32,000 nucleotides of DNA from the NCBI GenBank assembly GCA_051388875.1, contig JBMFFR010000001.1, positions 58,876 through 90,875 of the forward strand, read 5' to 3'. This DNA comes from Candidatus Brocadiia bacterium JP1. Its GTDB lineage: Bacteria > Planctomycetota > Brocadiia > Brocadiales > Bathyanammoxibiaceae. Below, piece by piece: positions 16,566-30,757 of the stretch. Both the position numbers and the translations under genes were made by a program. The notes beneath the pieces are model-generated. The model was given only the letters and a program-made list of their open reading frames with translations. It was not told the origin of the DNA and did no database searches. Within the stretch, counting starts at the first letter, position 1, and every line of letters begins with the position of its first letter.

Positions 16566-16635
16566 GGACTCAGGTTCTCAGAGGGCTTGCGGAAAAGAAA
16601 AAGACCTAATTTAAGATGGGGGAAGGTTGAGAGAG

Positions 16636-16662
16636 CCCACCTCTTCTTAAAGAAGAGGTGGG
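16636..16662. repeat. Near-perfect 27-nt palindrome (13-nt arms) forming a strong hairpin
   Basis: The sequence cccacctcttctt a aagaagaggtggg has exactly reverse-complementary arms. It overlaps the stop of small ORF 16647..16850 and lies about 70 nt upstream of the nth start. Neither strand has a flanking U-tract. Confidence 0.6.
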
Positions 16663-16850
16663 TTGGGAAGGCCATTACAGGCGTCTTCTTTTAGGTCTTT
16701 ATCCAATTCGAACTCAATCTCTTTCCGAGGCTCCAAGACCAGTTTCTTATAGCGTTCTTTTATTAACGCTAGTCTTTCTAGTTTTCGCTTATTGGCCCAC
16801 TCTTCTATTTTAGGCTTAACTATCATCTTACCTACCTCAACGACGAGCAT
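16647..16850 (-). CDS. Small Lys/Glu-rich hypothetical protein (67 aa)
   Basis: The ORF reads MLVVEVGKMIVKPKIEEWANKRKLERLALIKERYKKLVLEPRKEIEFELDKDLKED..., a charged helical composition. An aaagga element sits about 10 nt upstream of the ATG. I recognise no homology. Confidence 0.35.
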   Translation of the reverse strand: MLVVEVGKMIVKPKIEEWANKRKLERLALIKERYKKLVLEPRKEIEFELDKDLKEDACNGLPNPPLL

Positions 16851-17737
16851 TTTTTTTATCCTTTTGATTAAACCCTAGAGATTCTGAAATCCTTAAAAGG
16901 CGAGTAAGACGAAAAAAATTATAACTTCCTCTGTAGAGCTGTCAAGGTCAAGGAGAGAGGAAATTTTTTTGTTAAAAACAATCCGTGAAGTAGTCATCTC
17001 CTTTACTCTCCTTTCCCTTAACATATCCAATGTACATGGCGATAATAATCGGCACCGCGTAACTTGGCAAGGGCAAAATAGCAAGCTCCGGGAAATTCGC
17101 AGAACTCTCCACCAGATGGGAGAGAAGTCCACCTTCACCCTACCTATGCCTGAGGCCAGATTTGTGGTGCTGGAGGCAGCTCCGGCCCGGGCGGAAGTCT
17201 CATTTGAAATTTGAAGTTTTCGCCCAAATCGAATTTACACCGAAAACCGGCACACCAATAACAAGACCACTGGGGGCTGTTGGCTAAGTGCCAAAATGTC
17301 ACCATGAACTTGTTTCATGGTCTCTTAATATATTGGTTTTATTAGATGCTGAAATAAATTAAGTATGACATCCCATATCGGTTTACAGGTTAGGCAACAA
17401 CCCACGCTTTGACGTAACTTCGTTTCGCTCAAGATTGACAGCCAGAGTTAAAGTTGCGTTTTTCAATGCGCTCAATTTATTTAAAGAAACAGGAGTCACC
17501 CAAGTAGCTTACCCTTATAGCAAGTCCACCAAAGTCCGCCAAAGGCGGGTTTGCCGATGGCATTACAGGGCGATACAGATTTGCATATTCAGCACCTTCG
17601 CCATAAACCAGCGACTAACTTAGTGTGGGTTTTTAACCCCCACGCCCCCTTTGCTAATGGAGGGAATTCTTTATAAATGTTTATCTTTAAATAACTTTAA
17701 CACATCCTGGCTTTTAAAGTTCCTAATGGAAATTGTG

Positions 17738-17766
17738 TTGACAATTCACGGTATAGTGGGTAAAAT
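17738..17766 (+). promoter_or_regulatory. Near-consensus sigma70-type promoter for the acpS-led operon
   Basis: The sequence reads TTGACA (17738..17743), a 17-nt spacer, then TAAAAT (17761..17766). It ends 30 nt upstream of the acpS GTG, with gaagga/gagggg purine-rich sequence in between. Confidence 0.6.
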
Positions 17767-17795
17767 TTTTCACTTATTGGGAAGGATTGTGAGGG

Positions 17796-18179
17796 GTGTA
17801 TATAGGAATTGACTTGGTGGAGGTGAAGAGGATAGAAGTCCTTTTCAGTCGGAATGAATCTTTTTTGAGGAGGATTTACACCCCGAGGGAAGTAGAGTAT
17901 TGTCAGGAGAAGAAGAATAAGTTTCAGCACCTGGCGGCCAGGTTTGCCACAAAAGAGGCGGTTATTAAGGCATTAGGAGGGGGTGCAAACTGGAAGGATA
18001 TAGAACTCCTTAATGACCCCACGGGTCGTCCATATCTCCAACTCTATGGGAGGGCAAAAAAGCGGGCGGATTCAAAGGGAATTGAGAAATACGAGGTCTC
18101 TGTTACCCACACCCAGGATTATGCTATTGCCCAGGTGCTACTAATGCCAAAATTAGTTGATAAGGGTCTATCCTCTTGA
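17796..18179 (+). CDS. acpS: Holo-[acyl-carrier-protein] synthase (4'-phosphopantetheinyl transferase)
   Basis: The 127-aa ORF contains IGIDLVEVKRIE, LAARFATKEAVIKALG and VSVTHTQDYAIAQVLL, the typical AcpS blocks. The start codon is GTG. Confidence 0.85.
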   Translation: MYIGIDLVEVKRIEVLFSRNESFLRRIYTPREVEYCQEKKNKFQHLAARFATKEAVIKALGGGANWKDIELLNDPTGRPYLQLYGRAKKRADSKGIEKYEVSVTHTQDYAIAQVLLMPKLVDKGLSS

Positions 18180-18284
18180 TTAGGAGTTTTGTCAAAGGCT
18201 TAACTTAAACGCAGTTAGAAAGGTGACAACTTAGATACTATTTTTAAGATATTTTAGGAATTCCTTATTCTTAAGAGAGAGAAG

Positions 18285-19760
18285 ATGAAAAAAAGAAAGC
18301 TCGTTCTCATAAACCCTCACCCAATAGGAAACATTGGAGAAGAAAACGTTTCAGTGCTTAACCAGATGCCGGTAAACCTAGGTTATCTCATAACCCTTAC
18401 CCCGGAGCACTGGGAGGTGGATGTTGTAGATGAGACTACCGAGCTTGCACTGGATGAGAACAATCAATTGATTTTCAAGGAGGCAGACCTTGTTGGTATA
18501 ACCTCCGTAAGCTACCAGGCACCAAGGGCATACGCTATTGCCCGCGCATGCAGGGAGAAAGGTATACCTGTGGTAATGGGGGGAGTACACGCTACCATAT
18601 ATCCCAATGAGGTTGCGCAGCATGTGGATTGCGTGGTAACAAAGGAGGCTATATCCGTATGGAGTAGACTTATATCTGACTTTGAAAAGGGAAAGCTTCA
18701 AAAACGTTACGACGGTGGACTAACACCCCTGGAAAATCTTAACGGATTATACCCTGCCAGAGACCTTCTTAAGAAAAAATACAAGTATCGCTACTCCGGT
18801 ATAATTACTACGGCAGGGTGCCCTTTCAGTTGCGAGTTCTGTTCGGTACCGCAGTTCCAGGGCCAAAAGTACAGGGAAAGGCCTATAGGAGATGTCCTGG
18901 ATGAGTTCGGGGCTATAAAGGGACAGTACAGGGGCCTGGTGCTTACGGATGAAAATTTCTACGGCCATAGCAAGAAGTCTAACGAGCGGGTCAGAGACCT
19001 ATTTAAGGGGATGGTAGACAGGAAGATATATCAAAACTGGTTTGGCTTTACCTCCCTCAATATTTACAAAGACAGCGAGACCCTTGACTACATGGTCAAG
19101 AGCGGTTGTGTGGGGGTGCTCATAGGTATAGAATCCTTGAATAAAGACACCCTCTATTCTATGAACAAGAATGTAAACTTGAGGATTACCATTGATAGAT
19201 ATTATGAGGCAGTGGAAAGCATCCGTAAACATGGCATAGCTGTCTGGGGCACACTCATATTTGGCAACGATGAGGATACCCCTGAGACCTTTGATGACGT
19301 AGCAGATTTTATACTGGGCTCTCAGATAGATATTACGACCTGTGGTATACTCTGCCCCTTCATCAATACACCCCTTTATAAGCGGCTAGAACAGGAAAAT
19401 AGGCTCTTCCGTACCAGCTTCCCTGAAGATTGGGTTTATTACACTTCCCACCACCTTGTTTATGTCCTTAAGAAACTATCCCTTCAGGAACTAATTGATG
19501 GGCTTGAGAGGTTTTACCAAAGGCTCTACTCTACGGAGGCAATAAGGAAGAGGTTCCAGAATTCCAGGGATGTGCTGAAGAACGACAATTCTTCCCTATT
19601 TGCTTTGAAGGTCAACTGGGACTGGCGAAATGTCTTCAAACACCTGCTAGAGAACCTCAAGAATCTGCAGGCCTCGGGGATCTATGATGTGGCCCTGGAA
19701 CGCGTAGGTAAAAAAGAAAAGTATGAAGAACCTACCCGACTAATAACGACAAAGATATAA
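18285..19760 (+). CDS. B12-binding-domain radical SAM enzyme (class B type)
   Basis: The N-terminal Rossmann-like region is B12-binding-like (LVLINPH...DLVGITSVSYQAPRAYAIARACREKGIPVVMGGVHAT). It is followed by the CxxxCxxC cluster motif in TTAGCPFSCEFCSV. Confidence 0.8.
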   Translation: MKKRKLVLINPHPIGNIGEENVSVLNQMPVNLGYLITLTPEHWEVDVVDETTELALDENNQLIFKEADLVGITSVSYQAPRAYAIARACREKGIPVVMGGVHATIYPNEVAQHVDCVVTKEAISVWSRLISDFEKGKLQKRYDGGLTPLENLNGLYPARDLLKKKYKYRYSGIITTAGCPFSCEFCSVPQFQGQKYRERPIGDVLDEFGAIKGQYRGLVLTDENFYGHSKKSNERVRDLFKGMVDRKIYQNWFGFTSLNIYKDSETLDYMVKSGCVGVLIGIESLNKDTLYSMNKNVNLRITIDRYYEAVESIRKHGIAVWGTLIFGNDEDTPETFDDVADFILGSQIDITTCGILCPFINTPLYKRLEQENRLFRTSFPEDWVYYTSHHLVYVLKKLSLQELIDGLERFYQRLYSTEAIRKRFQNSRDVLKNDNSSLFALKVNWDWRNVFKHLLENLKNLQASGIYDVALERVGKKEKYEEPTRLITTKI

Positions 19761-19770
19761 AGGGATTGCT

Positions 19771-21003
19771 ATGCGTAGAGTAGTGGTGACAGGGATAGGT
19801 CTGGTGACTGCCCTAGGGGCTAATGTAAGGGAATCCTGGAAGACAATGCTGGCAGGTAAAAATGGCATCTCGGAGATAACCACCTTTGACACTTCAAGAT
19901 ACAAGGTACACAAGGCCTGTGAGGTGAGGAAGTTAAATTCTAATGGGCACATTATCACAAAAAAGTCTTACACTGTGTACGAGTGTCTGCTGGCAGCGGC
20001 AAGGGAGGCCTTTGAAGATAGCGGCCTGGATGACTATAAGCCCTTAAATAGGGAACGAGCAGGCGTATCCGTGGGTACGCTGGCTGGGGAGTTGTCCCTC
20101 TTTGAAGAGCGTATCAGAAATCACCATAATCAAAAGGCAGATGGATTTGACCTGGAGGTTGCCCATAGCTATCCACCCGTAACGCTTTCCACAAAACTGG
20201 CAGAGGAGTTCCACCTGGAAGGCCCCAGCGTTATCCTTATAAACGCCTGCTCCTCTGGCAATCATGCCATTTGTTGGGCCTTTGATGCTATACAAGAAGG
20301 CAGGGTGGATGCAGTGGTAGTGGGGGGTAGCGATGTAGTACCTCAAACAGAGTTTACACATTTCCATAACCTGAAGGCTTTGGCCCCTGAGAGGTGCCAG
20401 CCTTTTGATAAGAATCGTCAGGGACTGGTGATAGGGGCAGGTGCAGGGGTGTTAATACTGGAAGACCTGGAACTTGCCCATAAAAGGGATAGTAAGATAT
20501 ATGCAGAGGTGAAAGGCTACGGCCTTAGTAGCGATGGTTATCATATGACGGCCCCCCATCCCACCGGGGAGGGGGCAGTCAGGGCCATGGAATTGGCCCT
20601 CGCCTCAGCTCAGGTATCCCCCGGGGATATTAACTACATAAGCGCTCATGGTACAGGCACACCCCTTAATGACAAGATGGAAACCATGGCACTGAAGACC
20701 ATCTTTAGGGAAAGGGCCCATACCATACCTTGTAGCTCCGTAAAGTCTATGATAGGCCATACAATGGGGGCAGCCAGTGCTATTGAATCCATAGTATGCT
20801 GTCTAGTCTTGAATGAAGGAATTGCTCCCCCCACCATTAATTACGAGACCCAAGACCCGGAGTGCAACATTGATTGCGTGCCGAACGAAGCCAGAGAATG
20901 TAAGGCGGACTACGCCTTAAATAATTCCTTCGCCTTCGGGGGCAACAATGTTGGCATTATTTTTGGCAAAGACCACTCAGCTAGTAGGAAAAAGGTTTTC
21001 TAA
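19771..21003 (+). CDS. Beta-ketoacyl-ACP synthase II-like ketosynthase (catalytically complete)
   Basis: The ORF contains VVVTGIGLVTALG, the active-site Cys in NACSSGNHAI, the His residues in YHMTAPHP and SAHGTGTPLND, then KSMIGHTMGAAS and NSFAFGGNN. Confidence 0.85.
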   Translation: MRRVVVTGIGLVTALGANVRESWKTMLAGKNGISEITTFDTSRYKVHKACEVRKLNSNGHIITKKSYTVYECLLAAAREAFEDSGLDDYKPLNRERAGVSVGTLAGELSLFEERIRNHHNQKADGFDLEVAHSYPPVTLSTKLAEEFHLEGPSVILINACSSGNHAICWAFDAIQEGRVDAVVVGGSDVVPQTEFTHFHNLKALAPERCQPFDKNRQGLVIGAGAGVLILEDLELAHKRDSKIYAEVKGYGLSSDGYHMTAPHPTGEGAVRAMELALASAQVSPGDINYISAHGTGTPLNDKMETMALKTIFRERAHTIPCSSVKSMIGHTMGAASAIESIVCCLVLNEGIAPPTINYETQDPECNIDCVPNEARECKADYALNNSFAFGGNNVGIIFGKDHSASRKKVF

Positions 21004-21005
21004 AA

Positions 21006-22277
21006 ATGTCTTACCCCAGTCAGGGATGCCCCACTAATAACAAAAAGAGGGTAGCAATAACAGGTATTGGTGTTGTCTCACCGCTGGGTTCAGGCCATAG
21101 AGAATTCTGGTCAAACCTTATCCAGGGCCGTTCCGGAATAGCACCTATAACCTCTTTTGACGTCTCTCCTTACCCTTGCAAGTTAGCCGCAGAGGTCAGG
21201 GACTTTAATGCAGCTGATTACTTGGGCGACAAAGGCCTTAAATATCTCACTAAGGGTACAAAGTTACTGGCCTCCGCTATAAAGTTGGCCATGGAAGACG
21301 CCCAACTTAATGAAAACCTCCCTGAATATTCAGGAATTATAATAGGCTCCGCACTGGGCAATTACTCTCAGACCACTGATTATACTTATGACATCTTCAA
21401 CATCGGACCCGAAAAGCTACTTCCCATGGCCAGTTTCGATGTGGCCCTCAACTCCTCCATCAATTTTGCCTCTGTCTTCTTCAAACTAAAAGGCCCTTCC
21501 AGAACCATTTCCTCTGGCTTCACGTCCAGCTTAGATGCCATAGGTAATGCCTTTAACTTTATAAGAAATAATAGGGAGACATTGTTAATAACGGGTGGGG
21601 TGGAACAGATATCACTGGATAGCTATCTTATATTCTTTTTGCAAGGACTTCTCTCTGGCTCCAACAACTCTGGGGCTGAACTCTGCCGGCCCTTTGATAG
21701 GTGTAGGAATGGTTTTATACTCGGTGAGGGCAGCTATGTGTTTATACTGGAAGAACTTGAGTCCGCCCTAAAACGTGGGGCAAAAATATATGCCGAGATA
21801 ATAGGCTCTGGCACTACTTTTATGGGCAGTAGCAGATTTGATGCCGGGGAAAAGGTTAAGAAGATTCAGAAGGCCATGGAGCTTGCATTGGAGGATGCAG
21901 CCATTTCAAAAGAATCTTTAGGCCTTATCTTTGCTAACGGGAATTCCAGCAAACAAATGGACATACTAGAGGCTAAGGCGATAAAGGGCTTTATGGCAGA
22001 TACCTCAGAAAAGATTTTGGTAACCTCGGCAAAACCGCTTCTAGGGGAGTGCTACGGGGCCTCCGGTGCTATGCAGGCGGTTTGCTGTGTTTTATCCATG
22101 AGCAATTCCCTTGTCCCTCCCATCGTAAACCTGGAAGAACCTGACTCTGAATGTAGTCTTAACTTCGTTGTAAAGAAAGCACTACCAAGAGACATTCAGT
22201 TTGCTATGGTAAACTCTATAGACCCCGAAGGTAATTGCTCCTGTTTGGTACTTGAAAAGGTTAACGATAAAAGGTAA
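21006..22277 (+). CDS. Ketosynthase-fold partner lacking the catalytic Cys/His residues (chain-length-factor-like KS-beta)
   Basis: The fold blocks are present (VAITGIGVVSPLG, PFDRCRNGFILGEGSYVFILEE). The position of the active-site Cys reads SSGFTSSLDAIG with no Cys. The HxTAP position reads TTFMGSS, and the AHGTGT position reads ANGNSSKQMD. The ORF starts 2 nt after the upstream stop. Confidence 0.75.
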   Translation: MSYPSQGCPTNNKKRVAITGIGVVSPLGSGHREFWSNLIQGRSGIAPITSFDVSPYPCKLAAEVRDFNAADYLGDKGLKYLTKGTKLLASAIKLAMEDAQLNENLPEYSGIIIGSALGNYSQTTDYTYDIFNIGPEKLLPMASFDVALNSSINFASVFFKLKGPSRTISSGFTSSLDAIGNAFNFIRNNRETLLITGGVEQISLDSYLIFFLQGLLSGSNNSGAELCRPFDRCRNGFILGEGSYVFILEELESALKRGAKIYAEIIGSGTTFMGSSRFDAGEKVKKIQKAMELALEDAAISKESLGLIFANGNSSKQMDILEAKAIKGFMADTSEKILVTSAKPLLGECYGASGAMQAVCCVLSMSNSLVPPIVNLEEPDSECSLNFVVKKALPRDIQFAMVNSIDPEGNCSCLVLEKVNDKR

Positions 22278-22419
22278 TTTGTCGTTACTCCGGGGTTGCC
22301 TGAAGTGAGTCCTTCTATTTGCCACTATTAAGCTTAAATTCTTAATTATTTTTAAAGATGGGCATAAATCGTAGTGCCTATCAAAATGGGTTTGATAAAC
22401 CAAACACCTGCAAGTAAAG

Positions 22420-24426
22420 ATGGTGAGCCTTTTTGACCCTATAAATATCGGCCCGATGAGGCTTGACAACCGTCTGGTTATGACGGCTATGGATGTGGGC
22501 TTCTCCACGGACGGATTTGCTAACGACCGCTTCATAGACTTTTATGCTGAGAGGGCAAAATGGGGTGTAGGCCTGATAATAATCGGGGGTTGCTATCCGC
22601 ATGAAAGCGGTAAGGCGTGGAAAAGCATACTTGCGCTTGATGACGACCGCTACATCCCAAGCTTAAGAAAATTTACAGAAACTATGCATAAACTAGGGGC
22701 CAAGACTGCTCCGCAACTTTTGCACGGTGGGCGCTATGCCTCCAGCCTCTTTACAAAGAGCCAACCTGTTTCAGCCTCTAGCGTCCCTTCCCGCCTGGCC
22801 AGAGACGTTCCGAGACCCCTTACCGTCTCCGAGATAAAGGAGATGGTATCCCACTACGCTAGGGCCGCCTTGAGGGCCAAAGAGGCAGGCTTTGATGCAG
22901 TAGAAATACATGGTGGCATGGGCTACCTGATAAACCAGTTTCTATCCCCTATCACTAACCATAGAGAGGATGAATATGGTGGGGACCTGCAGGGCAGGCT
23001 AAGGTTTGCCCGAGAGGTACTTCAAGCCACAAAGGAACTAGTCGGGAAGGATTTCCCAATTATCTTCAGACTTTCAGGGGATGAGCTCATGCAAGGGGGA
23101 AACAAGATCAATGAGAACATCTTGATTGCCGGAGAGCTGGCAAGCTCAGGGGTGGACGCCTTCCACATCTCACCGGGTTGGCACGAGAGCAAGACCCCCA
23201 TAATGGTTATGGCTATCCCAAGGATGGCCTACACATTCCTGGCGGCCTCTATCAAAGAAAAGGTTAACTTGCCTGTTATAGCGGCTGTCAGAATAAACGA
23301 CCTCTACGATGCAGAAGAACTCCTCAGAGATGGGCAAGCAGACCTCGTAGCTTTGGGGCGTCCACTTATTGCAGACCCGGAGTTGCCCAAAAAATATAGA
23401 GAGGGCAGACGGGAGGACATTAGAACCTGTATTGCCTGCAATCAGGGATGCTTTGACGAACTACTTAACATGAGGCCTGTATCGTGTTTATATAATGCAC
23501 AGGTAGGATACGAAAAGGAATACGTCATCAGGGAAGCCTCTGCGAAGAAGAAGGTCATGGTGATAGGAGGCGGCCCGGGGGGGATGGAGGCCGCAAGGGT
23601 TGCCGCCCTGAGGGGACACGAGGTAACCCTTTACGAAAAGGAACACCAACTGGGGGGACAGCTCCACTACGCCTGGAAACCCCCAGGTAGAGAAGAGTTT
23701 CAGCATGTTATAGGTTACCTTGAGAGACAGCTAGCCAAATTAAGGGTAAAAGTAGCCCTGGGGGTAAAGGTAGATTTGGGGCTAATAGAAAAGGAACGCC
23801 CAGAGGTTATTATCCTTTCAACAGGTTCCACTCCTATAATTCCTCCCATTCCAGGAATAAAAGGCAAAAACGTAGTATTAGCTAGAGATGTTTTGGAGAA
23901 GAAGCTGTCCATAGGTAATCCCGTAGCCGTTATAGGAGGAGGGTCTGTGGGATGCGAGGTTGCCCTTTACGTAACCAAACTAGGCAGCATGAACCCAGAG
24001 GTGGCATTGTTCCTGTTGAGGAATCAGATTATTGATCTTCCCAATGCCCTGTTGAGGAGCCACCATGGACACCGCAAGGTCACGGTGCTTGAGATGAAGA
24101 GGAAGGTAGGAAGTGGCTTCGGTCTTTCCACTCGTTGGGTCATACTCAAGGAGATGGAGGAGGCAGGTATAGAGGAACTCACTGGTGTTAAGGTAAACAG
24201 GATACAGGAAGGGCCTCCCAGTGGCGTCTTCTACGAGAAAGAGGGGAAGGAGACATTTCTTCCTGCCGAGACCGTAATACTGGCAACGGGCTATGTCCCC
24301 AATAATTCCCTTTATCAGCAACTTGATGGTCTGGTGCCAGAGGTTTATAGTATAGGAGATTGTGTGAAGGTAAGAACAGCAATGGAGGCTATTCACGAAG
24401 GCTTTAGGGTTTCGCTGAATATATAG
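22420..24426 (+). CDS. 2,4-dienoyl-CoA reductase (FadH)-like / Old-Yellow-Enzyme-family enoate reductase with Fe-S and FAD/NAD(P) domains
   Basis: The 668-aa ORF begins with an OYE TIM-barrel region (LFDPINIGPMRLDNRLVMTAM, HGGMGYLINQFLSP...REDEYGG). The Cys motif reads CIACNQGCFDELLNMRPVSC. Two dinucleotide-binding motifs follow, VIGGGPGGMEAA and VIGGGSVGCEVA. Confidence 0.8.
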   Translation: MVSLFDPINIGPMRLDNRLVMTAMDVGFSTDGFANDRFIDFYAERAKWGVGLIIIGGCYPHESGKAWKSILALDDDRYIPSLRKFTETMHKLGAKTAPQLLHGGRYASSLFTKSQPVSASSVPSRLARDVPRPLTVSEIKEMVSHYARAALRAKEAGFDAVEIHGGMGYLINQFLSPITNHREDEYGGDLQGRLRFAREVLQATKELVGKDFPIIFRLSGDELMQGGNKINENILIAGELASSGVDAFHISPGWHESKTPIMVMAIPRMAYTFLAASIKEKVNLPVIAAVRINDLYDAEELLRDGQADLVALGRPLIADPELPKKYREGRREDIRTCIACNQGCFDELLNMRPVSCLYNAQVGYEKEYVIREASAKKKVMVIGGGPGGMEAARVAALRGHEVTLYEKEHQLGGQLHYAWKPPGREEFQHVIGYLERQLAKLRVKVALGVKVDLGLIEKERPEVIILSTGSTPIIPPIPGIKGKNVVLARDVLEKKLSIGNPVAVIGGGSVGCEVALYVTKLGSMNPEVALFLLRNQIIDLPNALLRSHHGHRKVTVLEMKRKVGSGFGLSTRWVILKEMEEAGIEELTGVKVNRIQEGPPSGVFYEKEGKETFLPAETVILATGYVPNNSLYQQLDGLVPEVYSIGDCVKVRTAMEAIHEGFRVSLNI

Positions 24427-24440
24427 AAACGGAGAATCTT

Positions 24441-25184
24441 ATGTCATTAAAAGGTAAAGTGGCAATTGTTACTGGAGGGACGCGGGGTATAGGAAGGGCC
24501 ATAGCACTGGAACTCGCCCGAAGTGGCATAGATGTAGCCTTCAGCTTCCTTAAGAGTGCAGATAAGGCTAAAGAACTGGAAGGGGAACTAAGTAAGCTGG
24601 GTGTAAAGGCACTATCCATACAAAGCAACGTAGCAGACTTCAATCAGTCAAAGGAGATGGTCAACGCAGCCTTAAAGCACTTCGGAAAGATAGATATACT
24701 CGTAAACAATGCAGGCGTTACGCATGATAATCTAATGATGAGGATGAGCGAGCAGCAGTGGAAAGAGGTAATAGATACCAACCTGAATGGTGCTTTTAAT
24801 TGCACAAGGGCTGCCGTATTTCCCATGATGAAGCAGAAGGGTGGGGCCGTCATAAATCTAACCTCGGTAAGTGGAATCATAGGGATGATGGGCCAAGCCA
24901 ATTACGCAGCATCTAAGGCAGGCCTTATCGGGTTTACCAAGTCACTTGCTAAGGAACTGGCAAGGTTTAATATAACGGTTAATGCTGTGGCGCCTGGGTT
25001 TATAGATACGGAGATGACACAGGTACTGGATAAGAAGTATATGGAGGAGGCCCTTAAGCTAATCCCTTTAGGGCGTGTAGGTAAAGCAGAAGAAGTAGCC
25101 AAGGCCGTTCTGTTTCTGGTCTCGCCAGAGGCTAGTTACATAACCGGCCATGTGCTGAATGTGGATGGTGGTTTAGCTATGTAA
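24441..25184 (+). CDS. fabG: 3-oxoacyl-ACP reductase (SDR family)
   Basis: The ORF contains TGGTRGIGRAIA, NNAG, the YAASKAG catalytic motif, and NAVAPGFIDTEMT. A ggaga element sits 6 nt before the ATG. Confidence 0.85.
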   Translation: MSLKGKVAIVTGGTRGIGRAIALELARSGIDVAFSFLKSADKAKELEGELSKLGVKALSIQSNVADFNQSKEMVNAALKHFGKIDILVNNAGVTHDNLMMRMSEQQWKEVIDTNLNGAFNCTRAAVFPMMKQKGGAVINLTSVSGIIGMMGQANYAASKAGLIGFTKSLAKELARFNITVNAVAPGFIDTEMTQVLDKKYMEEALKLIPLGRVGKAEEVAKAVLFLVSPEASYITGHVLNVDGGLAM

Positions 25185-25248
25185 AACGTTAAATTTTTAA
25201 TCAAAAATTGCAAATTTTGAACAAAAAACTGAAAATTAGGATAAAAAA

Positions 25249-25602
25249 ATGCTCTTTCTTGTAAAAGTTGAGATAGAAAAACTTCCGCAAATACCTACCA
25301 GAAGTTTTTTTGAGTTGCTAATAAAGGAATGGGAGTACTACGAGAGGATGAAGAAGAGGGGTAAGGTCTTGGCCGGTGGGAAGTTAGCGGGCAGGCGGGG
25401 TGCTGCCGCTATCTTCAATGCAGATTCCAGTGAGGAGATAGAGGCGATTGTAACTAAACTCCCCCTCTTTCCCTTCTTTACCAAGATAGAGATAACCCCA
25501 TTGGTACCCCAGGAACAGGCCCTTCAGGATGCAAGGAGGATGTACCAGCTGGTGAAAGACACAGACCTTATGCTCTTCCCAACAGGTGCTGAACGTGGTT
25601 AG
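25249..25602 (+). CDS. Muconolactone delta-isomerase-like small protein (ferredoxin-like fold family)
   Basis: The 117-aa ORF reads MLFLVKVEIEKLP...RGKVLAGGKLAGRRGAAAIFNADSSEEIEAIVTKLPLFPFFTKIEITPL. This parallels the MLFxVKM...LPLFPYM pattern I recall for muconolactone isomerase. Confidence 0.55.
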   Translation: MLFLVKVEIEKLPQIPTRSFFELLIKEWEYYERMKKRGKVLAGGKLAGRRGAAAIFNADSSEEIEAIVTKLPLFPFFTKIEITPLVPQEQALQDARRMYQLVKDTDLMLFPTGAERG

Positions 25603-25774
25603 GAAAGTATGTACCGAGGGGGTCGCCACTTTTGCAAAGGTGGTTGACCATGCAGGGCAAGCTCTGCTTCTTTATAACCTGTTCACAACACATAGGTTAA
25701 GATTATGCTAGATAGAAATCATTAAAAGCTGTTGCTTTGTTCTCTCCGGATAGCTTGAACAGTTTGAAACTAAC

Positions 25775-28283: not shown

Positions 28284-28429
28284 ACTTTGAGCAAAATTGG
28301 GACACCTTGACGTCTCGTAACTAAATTCTCAGGGACTTATTGTCATTGCTAGTCCGCAATAATCCTTCTTGACTTTACTGAATAATATAAGAAAATCATG
28401 AAATAAAAGGAATTGTCTTGGAGAAATTT

Positions 28430-29311
28430 ATGGATAGAGATAAGCCTATTGTCAATAATGAGTTACCTCTAATTGTACCTCACATTTCAGGTGAAAAATT
28501 AAAACGCACAAGAAGTCTAAAGCGTGCAAATGATTTAAATGGCAAGACCTGGTTACAATACTCTATAAGCGTCTGGAACGATATTAAAAAAACTAGCGAA
28601 GAGATTAAGCTTAAACATCCTGCGATGTTTCCCTCCCCGCTTGCTGAAAGGCTCATACAGGTATATACAACTAACCAACAAAAAAATATCTTAGACCCAT
28701 TTGTCGGTGTGGGATCAACCCTTTTGGCAGCAAAGAACCTTGGTAAACACGGAGTAGGATTTGATATTTCAAAGGAGTATGTTGAAATTGCACAAAATAG
28801 ACTCAACCAGGGACACTTTGCTGAAAAGGGCGAATATAAATTATACTGTGAAGATGCTAGAAACTTGTTTAATCATGTTAGAAGAGGTACGATAGACTTG
28901 TGTATCACCTCCCCTCCATATTGGAATATCCTTTCACAAAAAAGAACCGCAGACTCTAAAGAAATCCGTGATTATGCTGAAAAGGGCAGCAATCTAGGAA
29001 TCATCCAGGATTATAAGGCCTTTTTACAAGAATTGAGGGCTATCTTTGCAAAGGTCAAGACTGTTTTAAAACCATTTGCCCGCTGTTGTGTCATAGTGAT
29101 GGACATAAGAAAAGGGCCAAAATTTTATCCTTTTCATATGGATATAACTCGTTTTATGACAGAAGACTTAGGATTTATCTTAGAGGACATTATAATTTGG
29201 GATAGAAGGTCGGAGTATAACAATCTAAGACCTTTAGGTTATCCTTCAGTTTTTCGTATTAATAAAATACATGAATTTATTCTTATATTCCAAAAGCTAA
29301 AAGAACATTAA
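28430..29311 (+). CDS. DNA methyltransferase of the N4/N6 (PF01555-like) type with an SPPY catalytic motif; motif I precedes motif IV
   Basis: The segment HPAMFPSPLAERLI...ILDPFVGVGSTLLAAKNLGKHGVGFDISKEYVEIAQNRL carries the AdoMet-binding FxGxG region. It is followed about 70 aa later by GTIDLCITSPPYW and AFLQELRAIFAKVKTVLKP. I prefer the ATG at 28430, which has ggaga 5-6 nt upstream, over the track TTG at 28418. Confidence 0.8.
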   Translation: MDRDKPIVNNELPLIVPHISGEKLKRTRSLKRANDLNGKTWLQYSISVWNDIKKTSEEIKLKHPAMFPSPLAERLIQVYTTNQQKNILDPFVGVGSTLLAAKNLGKHGVGFDISKEYVEIAQNRLNQGHFAEKGEYKLYCEDARNLFNHVRRGTIDLCITSPPYWNILSQKRTADSKEIRDYAEKGSNLGIIQDYKAFLQELRAIFAKVKTVLKPFARCCVIVMDIRKGPKFYPFHMDITRFMTEDLGFILEDIIIWDRRSEYNNLRPLGYPSVFRINKIHEFILIFQKLKEH

Positions 29312-29316
29312 AAACT

Positions 29317-30270
29317 ATGCTCATTACAAAAAACCAGGATTATATGGATGAGGATGTAGCATATTTATTAGGGCTTATTCTTGTGAGGGGCACACTTACA
29401 GAAGACAAAGACATAAAAAGATTAGCTATAGAATTTCCTTACAAGTCATTGGAGGCTAAAGGAATAAGCACTTCCTACAACCAAAAATCAGCGTTGCAAT
29501 TATCAGCCAATTCTATTAGAGACCGAATAAATGAGCTGCTAGGCGTTGATTTGAAGGTAGAGAATATGAGTGGTTCAGTAGTCCTTTCCGCAGTCTTTAC
29601 AAAAAATACTCTGGCGTGGAGAAATTTAAAGTTACTTTTAGGAGATAAGAGTAGTTACTCCGAATTTGAACTTAATCCGATTTTCTATGAGTTCGAAATA
29701 AGTATTAAAAAGGAATTGGTTAGGGGTATAGCAGATGCCACAGGATTTATAAGGCCTTCTAACGAATATTATGGCAGACATAGAATTTATCTAGAAATAA
29801 ACAATGCTAATTGGTATTTACCTATTCAAATATGTAAGCTGTTACAAGAGATGGGTGTAGGTGTGCAGTTAATACAATGGGGTCATCCTAACATGAGGGA
29901 GCCCGGCAAGACAGACGTGGATGCCGAAAAGTCTTCGTGGGCAAGGGAACACCAAATTAAGATATTTGCGGAAGAGTTTGAATCGGTAGGTTTTTACTCC
30001 CCACACAAACAAAAGATATTGGAAGAATTTGCTGAGTATAATAAAAATATGTTCAAGAAAAAGCATGAAGAGTGTAACCCTTTAGAAAAAGGGATAAGAG
30101 AGCCTAAGCCTAAACATCCTTGTGAAAACCACCTGAAGATACCTACCGAAATAAGAGGAAGGCATTTTGATGGGTACTGGCAAATATGTCAGGGATTAGG
30201 TTGCATGCAGGGTAAACCAAGTCAGCAGATAAGCTTTGACTTTATGGATGTATTAGAAAGCGATGTATAG
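29317..30270 (+). CDS. Protein with two degenerate LAGLIDADG-like motifs and a C-terminal Cys/His-rich tail; possible DNA-recognition or nuclease subunit
   Basis: Motif 1 is [15 protein letters not shown] (res ~13-27). Motif 2 is [14 protein letters not shown] (res ~132-145), about 120 aa later. Each is followed by a beta-like segment and an hxxhxxLLxxxGh helix ([15 protein letters not shown]; [15 protein letters not shown]), as in double-motif LAGLIDADG folds. The usual catalytic acidic residue before the final Gly is R in motif 1 and T in motif 2. The tail reads HEECNPLEK...HPCENH...WQICQGLGC. The ORF starts 5 nt after the methyltransferase stop. Confidence 0.45.
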
Positions 30271-30757
30271 TAAAGAATCACAGATGTATCCTCCCGTGAG
30301 ATACTGGTTAACCTCTTTATTAAAAGAGAAGCACAAGAAAAAAAAAGTAATTGTAGAAGATACTTCTAAAATTACATTAAGACGATTTATAGAAGATACT
30401 AGCCTCCAGAGGGCCTTTCCCCAATATATTGCTTATGACATAAAACTAGATGTAACAGGCTTTATAATTGATTCTGAAGCTAGTGCAGAGTTAGTATTTG
30501 TTGAGTGCAAGTTGGCCCCACTTACTCTTAGAGATTTGTGTCAGTTAATAGGATATAGCCTCGTTGCACGACCTAGTTATGCTTTTTTATTGTCTCCTGC
30601 TGGGATAAGCGATGCATTAAAATTTCTGATACAAATTCATGGAAGGTATGACATCCTTAGATATAATAAAGATAAGTTTATAAGGATTTCACAATGGGAT
30701 CCATCACGTTGCGAAATAATTCCATCAACTACCCTACCCCCAGGCATGCATGTTTAG
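30263..30757 (+). CDS. Small protein with a PD-(D/E)xK-like nuclease motif
   Basis: The 164-aa ORF contains [27 protein letters not shown], an Asp followed by ExK at the end of a hydrophobic strand. Its ATG at 30263 overlaps the upstream TAG (30268..30270) by 8 nt. An alternative ATG lies at 30284. Confidence 0.5.

Follow-up and report, generated by a model that had tools for sequence, protein, structure and literature searches.

We analyzed a 32,000-nucleotide (nt) stretch of contig JBMFFR010000001.1 from Candidatus Brocadiia bacterium JP1 (here called the window) and focused on seven plus-strand genes. They encode a holo-acyl carrier protein (ACP) synthase, a B12-binding radical S-adenosylmethionine enzyme (rSAM), an active ketosynthase (KS), a catalytically disabled KS partner (KS-mut), a FadH-type reductase of the old yellow enzyme kind (OYE), a FabG-type ketoreductase, and a small protein with the muconolactone isomerase (MIase) fold. 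Since the first four genes match Kuste2802-2805 of Kuenenia stuttgartiensis, the core of this finding has already been published. The window operon is a known candidate cluster for ladderane synthesis in an extended, crotonase-less variant and not a new kind of system. It is very probable that the locus is both a single promoter-to-terminator operon and the counterpart of Kuste2802-2805. The three downstream genes are new relative to the published cluster, as far as the literature shows.

Ladderane biosynthesis has been an open question since 2002. To our knowledge, no enzyme has been linked to the making of ladderanes, and the single large heterologous attempt failed. Rattray et al. (2009; PMC2649909) proposed four K. 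stuttgartiensis gene clusters for ladderane synthesis, Kuste2802-2805 among them. In their description, Kuste2802 is the sole acpS listed for K. stuttgartiensis (Table 1 of PMC2649909), Kuste2803 is a B12-binding radical SAM enzyme, Kuste2804 is FabF, and Kuste2805 is a noncanonical “FabB” with Phe163, Asn298, Lys328, and Glu333 in E. coli FabB numbering (Table 2 of PMC2649909). The window has the same order of acpS, B12-rSAM, FabF-like KS, and noncanonical KS in the same host group, the anammox Brocadiia, and the Phe/Asn/Lys/Glu residues of its KS-mut are identical to those of Kuste2805. The Kuenenia orthologs are 70% (rSAM), 57% (KS), and 51% (KS-mut) identical to the window proteins. The two loci differ in what follows. 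OYE, FabG, and MIase-like genes come next in the window but not at the Kuenenia locus, where contigs carry exactly the four operon genes and then unrelated genes. As far as the literature shows, none of these three genes is in the 34-gene ladderane candidate list, and earlier reconstitutions left their enzymes out.

The closest homologs of the window proteins come from metagenome-assembled genomes (MAGs) labeled Ca. Hypogeohydataceae, Ca. Tripitaka, Brocadiales, and “Planctomycetes RIFCSP...,” with identities of 86 to 87% for the rSAM and 92 to 94% for the MIase-like protein. The aquifer lineages Hypogeohydataceae and Tripitaka belong to the class Brocadiia and carry core anammox genes (bioRxiv 10.1101/2023.04.27.538623). 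No hydrazine-synthase gene lies within the window. Judging from these relatives, the host would be an anammox-lineage Brocadiia bacterium near Ca. Hypogeohydataceae/Tripitaka.

Both KS proteins have N- and C-terminal ketoacyl-synt domains. The KS carries Cys160, His293, Lys325, and His330, residues that are kept in 75 of the 77 KS sequences compared (the remaining two are incomplete at those columns). In KS-mut, the Cys is replaced by Phe and the two His residues by Asn and Glu, while the Lys is retained, and this Phe/Asn/Lys/Glu pattern was found in the window and at 57 anammox loci. The first-pass annotation, made from the sequence letters, had described a KS with a Cys-less partner that does not belong to ordinary fatty-acid synthesis, and both parts of that description stood up. 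When scored against the housekeeping FabF equivalog TIGR03150 (cutoff, 493.75), the KS reached 418.9 and KS-mut 310.9, so that both fall short. The best Protein Data Bank (PDB) match of the KS was 9s5h_B (423 bits, 49.5% identity), compared with 193 bits for chain C and about 294 for canonical FabF. For KS-mut, the best match was 9s5h_C (281 bits, 37.7% identity), compared with 220 bits for chain B and about 247 for canonical FabFs. Thus, a triad-bearing KS (CHKH) and a triad-less homolog (FNKE) are encoded 2 nt apart, and each is most similar to the matching subunit of a solved heterodimer.

The PDB molecule name of 9s5h is generic. Its chain C bears Val/Asn/Tyr/Gly/Glu, the residues published for Kuste3606, and because of this agreement we infer that 9s5h/9s5i is the amxFabF2/amxFabFmut (Kuste3605/3606) heterodimer. 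A 2026 preprint (bioRxiv 10.64898/2026.05.19.726425) describes amxFabF2/amxFabFmut as a functional heterodimer resembling a KS and a chain-length factor (CLF). Both systems place an active KS beside a triad-less partner, and both partners have the His-to-Asn and His-to-Glu changes. They differ at the Cys site, which is Phe in the window KS-mut, Val in 9s5h chain C, and Val or Thr in published amxFabFmut. Their neighbors differ as well, with acpS, OYE, FabG, and MIase beside the window pair and ACP, FabZ, and PDH beside the pair of the cluster known as Cluster I. Canonical Cluster I (ACP-FabZ-KS-KSmut-PDH-rSAM) is found at a separate locus in a lineage related to that of the window (L080), where KS-mut has Glu at the Cys site. 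Taken together, these comparisons indicate that the window pair is a paralog, not an ortholog, of amxFabF2/amxFabFmut, and by analogy the two window proteins would associate as a heterodimer.

A discrete KS with a CLF-like partner, a ketoreductase, and a dehydratase working on a free-standing ACP is also the arrangement of highly reducing type II polyketide synthases (PKS), such as those for ishigamide (Iga11/Iga12), aryl polyenes (ApeO/ApeC), and cispentacin (AmcF/AmcG). The window KS scored 276 bits against the ishigamide ketosynthase 6kxd_A and 243 bits against the AmcF model NF058662 (cutoff, 325) and is closer by score to the anammox pair than to these ketosynthases. We know of no B12-rSAM, FadH-type reductase, or MIase-fold protein in these systems.

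The operon occupies the plus strand from 17738 to 25667, bounded 5′ by a promoter-like site and 3′ by a terminator-like hairpin 50 nt past the MIase stop codon (Table 1). All seven open reading frames (ORFs) were recovered where the first-pass annotation had placed them, and Pfam and NCBIfam back each assignment. The intergenic gaps are, in gene order, 105, 10, 2, 142, 14, and 64 nt; half of them do not exceed 14 nt, in keeping with the mostly short spacing described before. The annotated TTGACA-17-TAAAAT site was also recovered. When the regions upstream of acpS from nine related genomes were aligned, the -35 hexamer TTGACA was invariant, as were bases 1 and 2 (TA), base 4 (A), and the last T of the -10 region, while the flanks could not be aligned. 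Invariant bases amid unalignable flanks imply that this site is likely a true promoter and not a chance match.

Table 1. Features of the operon, in positions of the window
Feature	Position	Strand	Description
Promoter (likely), sigma-70 type	17738..17766	+	TTGACA-17 nt-TAAAAT; 11/12 consensus positions; 30 nt before the acpS start codon
acpS	17796..18179	+	127 amino acids (aa), GTG start; holo-ACP synthase (4′-phosphopantetheinyl transferase)
rSAM	18285..19760	+	491 aa; class B (cobalamin-binding) radical SAM enzyme, Kuste2803 type
KS	19771..21003	+	410 aa; active ketosynthase, Kuste2804 type, amxFabF2 paralog
KS-mut	21006..22277	+	423 aa; catalytically disabled KS partner, CLF-like, Kuste2805 type
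OYE	22420..24426	+	668 aa; FadH/enoate-reductase-type flavin and iron-sulfur oxidoreductase
FabG	24441..25184	+	247 aa; FabG-type 3-oxoacyl-ACP reductase
MIase-like	25249..25602	+	117 aa; MIase-fold protein
Terminator-like hairpin and T-rich tail	25652..25677 (hairpin, 25652-25667)	+	GCAGGGCAAGCTCTGC then TTCTTTATAA; consensus match only

Enzymes of the operon

Catalytic motifs are intact in the operon enzymes other than KS-mut. AcpS scored 75 bits against Pfam ACPS and 94 bits against TIGR00516 (cutoff, 59.8), and its gene lies immediately 5′ of the rSAM gene in nearly all anammox loci.

The rSAM protein has a B12-binding domain (PF02310, 34 bits; cutoff, 32.1), a Radical_SAM domain (PF04055, 67 bits), and DUF4070. 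Its cluster motif is C179-x3-C183-x2-C186, with cysteines that are invariant in 16 orthologs. An N-terminal B12-binding domain together with a CxxxCxxC core makes this a class B radical SAM enzyme, which agrees with the first-pass assignment. Orthologs with 66 to 87% identity were present in every anammox genus recovered. The window rSAM reaches no NCBIfam family cutoff, and structure comparison returned no close solved structure for it. Membership in TIGR04072 (rSAM_ladder_B12; cutoff, 360) was considered and dropped, because the window protein (80.5 bits), the Kuenenia ortholog (71.6), and two anammox paralog types (P0112 and P0105, 82 to 91) all fall far below the cutoff. Methyltransferases predominate among the weak NCBIfam matches of the window rSAM (PhpK, HpnR, and the C-methyltransferases for Mcr glutamine and tryptophan). 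All of these lie far under cutoff, and the cyclase BchE and the dehydratase AprD4 score about as well.

The OYE protein consists of an Oxidored_FMN domain (residues 3 to 331) and a Pyr_redox_2 domain (residues 377 to 661), with a C337-x2-C-x3-C-x11-C motif and two GxGxxG motifs. An OYE-type FMN domain, Cx2Cx3Cx11C, and an FAD/NAD(P)H domain place it in the FadH/enoate reductase family, as expected from the flavin/Fe-S enoate or dienoyl reductase called earlier. This three-part architecture is common to E. coli-type FadH, clostridial enoate reductases, and BaiCD, but the window gene sits in a biosynthetic rather than a catabolic context. The protein fell below the cutoffs of the mycofactocin OYE-2, BaiCD, and bilirubin reductase equivalogs, the best being mycofactocin OYE-2 (522 against 793).

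The last two genes matched the ketoreductase and small isomerase-like protein that had been annotated. FabG scored 332.2 bits against TIGR01830 (cutoff, 297.75), which marks it as the ACP type, and has TGxxxGxG at residue 11 and YxxxK at residue 155. The MIase-like protein passed the Pfam MIase cutoff (54 bits against 26.7). It was rejected as a member of the muconolactone delta-isomerase equivalog TIGR03221 (39 bits against 130.6); the fold is shared, but the protein is not an equivalog member. Its AlphaFold2 model (pLDDT, 91.5) gave ClcF and MIase as top Foldseek matches, with TM scores of 0.84 to 0.87 and root mean square deviations of 1.4 to 1.7 Å. The ferredoxin-like fold is common to muconolactone delta-isomerase, ClcF, and the window protein, at just 23 to 27% sequence identity. 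The window protein differs in having a 25-residue C-terminal helix extension and no beta-ketoadipate pathway genes nearby. Glu27 is near-invariant across the family and may correspond to the residue changed in ClcF E27A, the mutant of substrate complex PDB 3zo7. Just 73 homologs of this protein were detectable.

Conservation and surroundings of the operon

An alignment of rSAM homologs, used as the query against species-representative genomes, gave 79 loci, which we then searched by tblastn with the window proteins. The acpS-rSAM-KS-KSmut core was syntenic in each anammox genus recovered; this order was present in Brocadia, Kuenenia (L035, L055, and L089/L090), Jettenia, Scalindua, Anammoxibacter, Loosdrechtia, Subterrananammoxibius, and Wunengus. 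In a neighbor-joining tree without support values, the window rSAM fell inside a single anammox clade. One contig binned as “uncultured Thermodesulfobacteriota” (L047) has acpS-rSAM-KS at Scalindua-level identity (rSAM, 71%; acpS, 53%) and probably reflects the mis-binning of a Scalindua contig, not a genuine case outside the anammox bacteria. A third group of anammox rSAM paralogs (P0105 and P0110) was dropped, as it does not occur in lipid-gene contexts. Members of this third type (L083, 2391-4516; L084, 9602-11443) are 52 to 54% identical to the window rSAM, and at both loci a divergently oriented gene of 64 to 65 aa with a DUF1858/ScdA_N domain precedes the rSAM in a conserved pairing.

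Operon forms were counted at the 45 anammox loci whose sequence continues for 8 kb or more downstream of the rSAM. The commonest long form was acpS-rSAM-KS-KSmut-OYE-ECH-FabG-MIase (18 of 45, with acpS detected in 15 of the 18), where ECH is an enoyl-coenzyme A (CoA) hydratase, a 266- to 270-aa crotonase (Pfam ECH_1). This eight-gene form is present in Scalindua and Jettenia, where the KS-mut and OYE genes adjoin or overlap by 4 nt. A seven-gene form without ECH was seen at 3 of the 45 loci as well as in the window, and no ECH homolog lies anywhere in the window. The core alone was found at 14 loci (12 with acpS and 2 without detectable acpS) in Brocadia, Kuenenia, Loosdrechtia, and a few others, and the remaining 10 loci had intermediate forms. 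FabG keeps its place in the operon in the window clade as well as in Scalindua and Jettenia.

The reductase also occurs away from the core. OYE orthologs with 57 to 60% identity were found in Scalindua, Jettenia, Brocadia, and K. stuttgartiensis. The last of these has OYE paired with ECH at a separate locus (L085, 10001-12978), and in B. pituitae, ECH directly follows KS-mut while OYE lies elsewhere. By these searches, the FadH-type reductase appears to be conserved universally in the anammox genera examined. The simplest reading of the gene orders is that an ancestral eight-gene operon fragmented in Brocadiaceae and that ECH was lost in the clade of the window. As far as the literature shows, the list of 34 ladderane candidates contains neither the reductase nor the crotonase found at L085 in K. 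stuttgartiensis. Some 4 kb downstream of this pair is a gene for a plsY-like acyltransferase (G3P_acyltransf).

Downstream of the terminator-like hairpin, a pabB-like gene (25775) and a pabC-like gene follow with their own promoter-like site (25682-25709); pabB beside the operon was absent from every related locus compared. No ACP or RNA gene emerged from Rfam, tRNA, and small-ORF scans of the 1.2 kb that precedes acpS. This nth-acpS interval (16566-17795) has no convincing ORF and no Rfam match and is not conserved in relatives. On the minus strand, a perfect 12/12 sigma-70 consensus (TTGACA-16-TATAAT, 16945-16918) stands upstream of a 67-aa ORF (16850-16647). Two further features of the window lie farther from the operon. 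From 28418 to 30757, a low-GC island (0.36 to 0.39, against about 0.45 elsewhere) holds a gene for an N6/N4 DNA methylase and, after it, two ORFs (317 and 164 aa) without a Pfam match; it may be an acquired module, for example one for restriction-modification. At 1579-2946, a TatC protein (Pfam residues 28 to 242) carries a fused FecR-like domain on its C-terminal side (residues 317 to 411), an unusual TatC architecture.

Relation to Cluster I and alternative explanations

The operon and Cluster I come together in an anammox-clade genome. In MAG CSMAG_693 (L008, 17240-21140), convergent Cluster I PDH (Amino_oxidase) and rSAM genes lie about 1.2 kb past the MIase gene, so that both candidate clusters are physically linked there.

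Genomes outside the anammox bacteria also contain homologous modules. Their hosts are a Blastocatellia MAG (L068), two “delta proteobacterium” MAGs (L069 and L073) and one Thermodesulfobacteriota MAG (L070), all three with a GC content of 0.68 to 0.70, and the non-anammox assembly GCA_037446155.1 (L082; GC content, 0.65). At L073 (1-17200), the order is KS-TetR-ACP-FabZ-KS-KSmut-PDH-rSAM-rSAM-rSAM-KS-KSmut(Phe)-ECH-FabG-rSAM. L069 (1-16600) resembles L073, with ACP-FabZ-KS-KSmut-PDH-rSAM-rSAM followed by rSAM-KS-KSmut-ECH-FabG, and the shorter contig L070 (1-8800) has the rSAM-KS-KSmut-ECH-FabG part only. At L082 (3900-19000), we found ACP-FabZ-KS-KS-rSAM-rSAM-rSAM-KS-KSmut-MIase-ECH-FabG-ACP-FabH-AcpS-KS, then an unannotated gene and MacB/FtsX genes; this supercluster has no PDH, and its MIase homolog lies right behind KS-mut. 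In the superclusters at L069, L073, and L082, the two anammox clusters are fused. In the neighbor-joining tree, again without support values, each non-anammox rSAM copy clusters with a different anammox paralog type. Dietl et al. (2023) described Cluster I as one “encountered exclusively” in ladderane producers. Given the non-anammox superclusters, this statement fails at the level of homologous architecture.

Smaller arrangements were seen as well. A minimal KS-KSmut-B12 rSAM triad occurs on a metagenomic contig whose rSAM is labeled Planctomycetota (L087, 7676-11431). In the Blastocatellia MAG (L068, 7469-13803), the KS-KSmut-rSAM triad is followed by a DUF374 gene and a second rSAM. The triad looks like a functional unit of its own.

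Several observations weigh against assigning the operon to ladderanes. The next-best rSAM relatives (54 to 56% identity) are from non-anammox genomes, and these genomes also hold homologs of KS (45 to 53%), FabG (49 to 58%), and MIase (50%); the hosts are not known ladderane makers. With homologous modules in such MAGs, the pathway type extends beyond the anammox bacteria, and a ladderane-specific reading loses weight. MIase and this copy of FabG were not found at the Brocadia or Kuenenia locus, and none of the 73 MIase homologs is labeled Brocadia or Kuenenia. Both genera make ladderanes, and therefore these two genes are not essential for the ladder. No ACP, dehydratase, acyltransferase, tRNA, or Rfam RNA gene was found within or adjoining the operon by domain, RNA, and small-ORF scans, and the first-pass annotation had likewise seen no ACP, dehydratase, or acyltransferase gene in it; the missing ACP and dehydratase count here. 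Most class B rSAM enzymes characterized to date transfer methyl groups, and a methyl-branched product would fit this no less well than a cyclized one. The gene calls at the compared loci rest on tblastn, and the rSAM tree is neighbor joining without support values. Expression of Kuste2802-2805 in E. coli yielded no new fatty acid (Javidpour et al. 2016; PMC4790861), and in the literature no experiment in any organism ties these genes to ladderanes. The anammox ladderane guess of the first-pass annotation is supported: it is right on taxonomy and synteny, and the active-site residues agree with Kuste2802-2805. It is qualified by the prior publication of the candidate, which makes it less novel, and by the non-anammox homologs, which take weight from its ladderane-specific part.

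The main alternative is that the operon makes a specialized lipid other than a ladderane, such as mid-chain methyl-branched or alkylated fatty acids. The rSAM would then act as a C-methyltransferase on the ACP-bound chain, and the KS/CLF pair would set its length. 10-Methylhexadecanoic acid is common to anammox bacteria and some sulfate reducers. The leaning of the weak rSAM matches toward methyltransferases fits this view, as do rSAM-KS-KSmut(-ECH-FabG) modules in non-anammox Thermodesulfobacteriota/“delta” MAGs, Blastocatellia, and Planctomycetota. However, those methyltransferase scores are far under cutoff and are equaled by BchE and AprD4, and the module is physically linked to the PDH-rSAM cluster. 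We consider this explanation unlikely.

Another possibility is that two unrelated units happen to be adjacent, the acpS-rSAM-KS-KSmut core and a set of CoA-dependent beta-oxidation auxiliaries comprising a 2,4-dienoyl-CoA reductase, a short-chain dehydrogenase/reductase (SDR) like 3-hydroxyacyl dehydrogenase, and an isomerase. FadH-type reductases and crotonases are classical beta-oxidation enzymes, and a 142-nt gap separates KS-mut from OYE. OYE and ECH are at other loci in Kuenenia and Brocadia, and the four core genes were called “a complete cluster” by Javidpour et al. (PMC4790861). Several features argue against mere adjacency. The eight-gene order is kept in the deeply diverged Scalindua, Jettenia, and window clade, apart from the ECH missing in the last, and in Scalindua and Jettenia the KS-mut and OYE genes abut or overlap. 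In the non-anammox superclusters, ECH-FabG (at L082, also MIase) comes straight after KS-mut. The SDR passes the equivalog cutoff for ACP-dependent FabG, and no plus-strand terminator-like site lies between KS-mut and OYE. This explanation is quite improbable.

An aryl-polyene-like or other polyene pigment pathway, with an outer-membrane lipid product unrelated to the anammoxosome, would account for the KS/CLF-type pair, the ketoreductase, and the KS match to 6kxd_A. The FabZ genes of the partner cluster match ApeI/ApeP-like Pfam families, and L082 ends in MacB/FtsX-type exporter genes. Yet the window has no ACPs, ApeI/ApeP dehydratases, aryl-CoA ligase, thioesterase, or LolA/MMPL export genes, nor any methyltransferase or glycosyltransferase genes, so it is not a known aryl-polyene locus. 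The nearest relatives by score are anammox FabF2/FabFmut and not polyene ketosynthases. We know of no fully reducing OYE and no rSAM enzymes in known aryl-polyene clusters. We regard such a pathway as very improbable.

Ordinary type II fatty-acid synthesis, that is, housekeeping FabF/FabB, FabG, and AcpS with passengers, is almost certainly wrong: AcpS is probably the housekeeping phosphopantetheinyl transferase (because Kuste2802 is the sole Kuenenia copy), FabG passes its equivalog, and the KS passes the broad subfamily model NF005589 (405 against 387), but both KS proteins fail the FabF equivalog and are nearer the anammox heterodimer subunits than any canonical FabF, KS-mut lacks the catalytic Cys and His, Kuenenia has a separate canonical fab cluster (Kustd1386-1389), and FabD, FabH, FabZ, FabI, and ACP are all missing from this locus.

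Proposed function and significance

The best explanation of these data, in which we have moderate confidence, is that the operon encodes a self-contained module for ACP-dependent elongation and modification of the highly reducing type II PKS/fatty acid synthase kind. In this model, AcpS would prime the carrier proteins. The KS (Cys-His-His) and its Phe/Asn/Glu partner would condense malonyl-ACP onto a special acyl-ACP, by analogy with the crystallized paralog, and FabG would reduce the 3-keto group. Dehydration would be performed by the operon crotonase in most anammox lineages. Since the window has no ECH or other dehydratase, the dehydratase must here act in trans, and amxFabZ is one candidate. 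The FadH-type flavin/Fe-S enzyme would then reduce the enoyl or dienoyl thioester, and the MIase-fold protein may move the double bond through a 1,3-proton transfer. Finally, the B12-rSAM would functionalize the tethered chain at an unactivated carbon, either transferring a methyl group to it or forming a C-C bond.

We propose that this module cooperates with Cluster I (amxACP-amxFabZ-FabF2-FabFmut-PDH-rSAM), which would be encoded at another place in the genome, and shares its carrier proteins. Together they would make a lipid specific to anammox bacteria, a ladderane chain or precursor being the most plausible. A direct role of the operon in ladderane formation is a tentative proposal, to which we would give somewhat less than an even chance.

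A broader reading, which we put forward as speculation and consider doubtful, is that the window operon and Cluster I each supply half of a single, ancient lipid pathway that depends on rSAM enzymes. The FadH-type reductase and the crotonase, both of which lie outside the gene set of the 2016 reconstitution, would be the parts missing from that work, and MIase and the extra FabG would have been added in particular lineages. The complete fused pathway is found in the Thermodesulfobacteriota/“delta” MAGs and the L082 genome, and a reduced KS-KSmut-rSAM-rSAM version is found in Blastocatellia. If this two-halves reading is true, either rSAM-cyclized (ladderane-like) lipids are made outside the anammox bacteria or the ladder step comes down to a few anammox-specific differences. 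The FadH-type reductase would be the sole such difference that is universal among anammox genera. Literature searches that combined ladderane with dienoyl-CoA reductase, muconolactone isomerase, enoyl-CoA hydratase, or old yellow enzyme returned nothing relevant.

Taken together, the comparisons show that most anammox lineages carry the four published candidate genes as the leading part of a longer operon, which adds a full reductive loop (ketoreductase, crotonase, and FadH-type ene-reductase) and an isomerase-fold protein. The comparative picture thus gives a concrete, extended gene set for reconstitution, and it points to the non-anammox hosts of the superclusters as organisms whose lipids merit examination.

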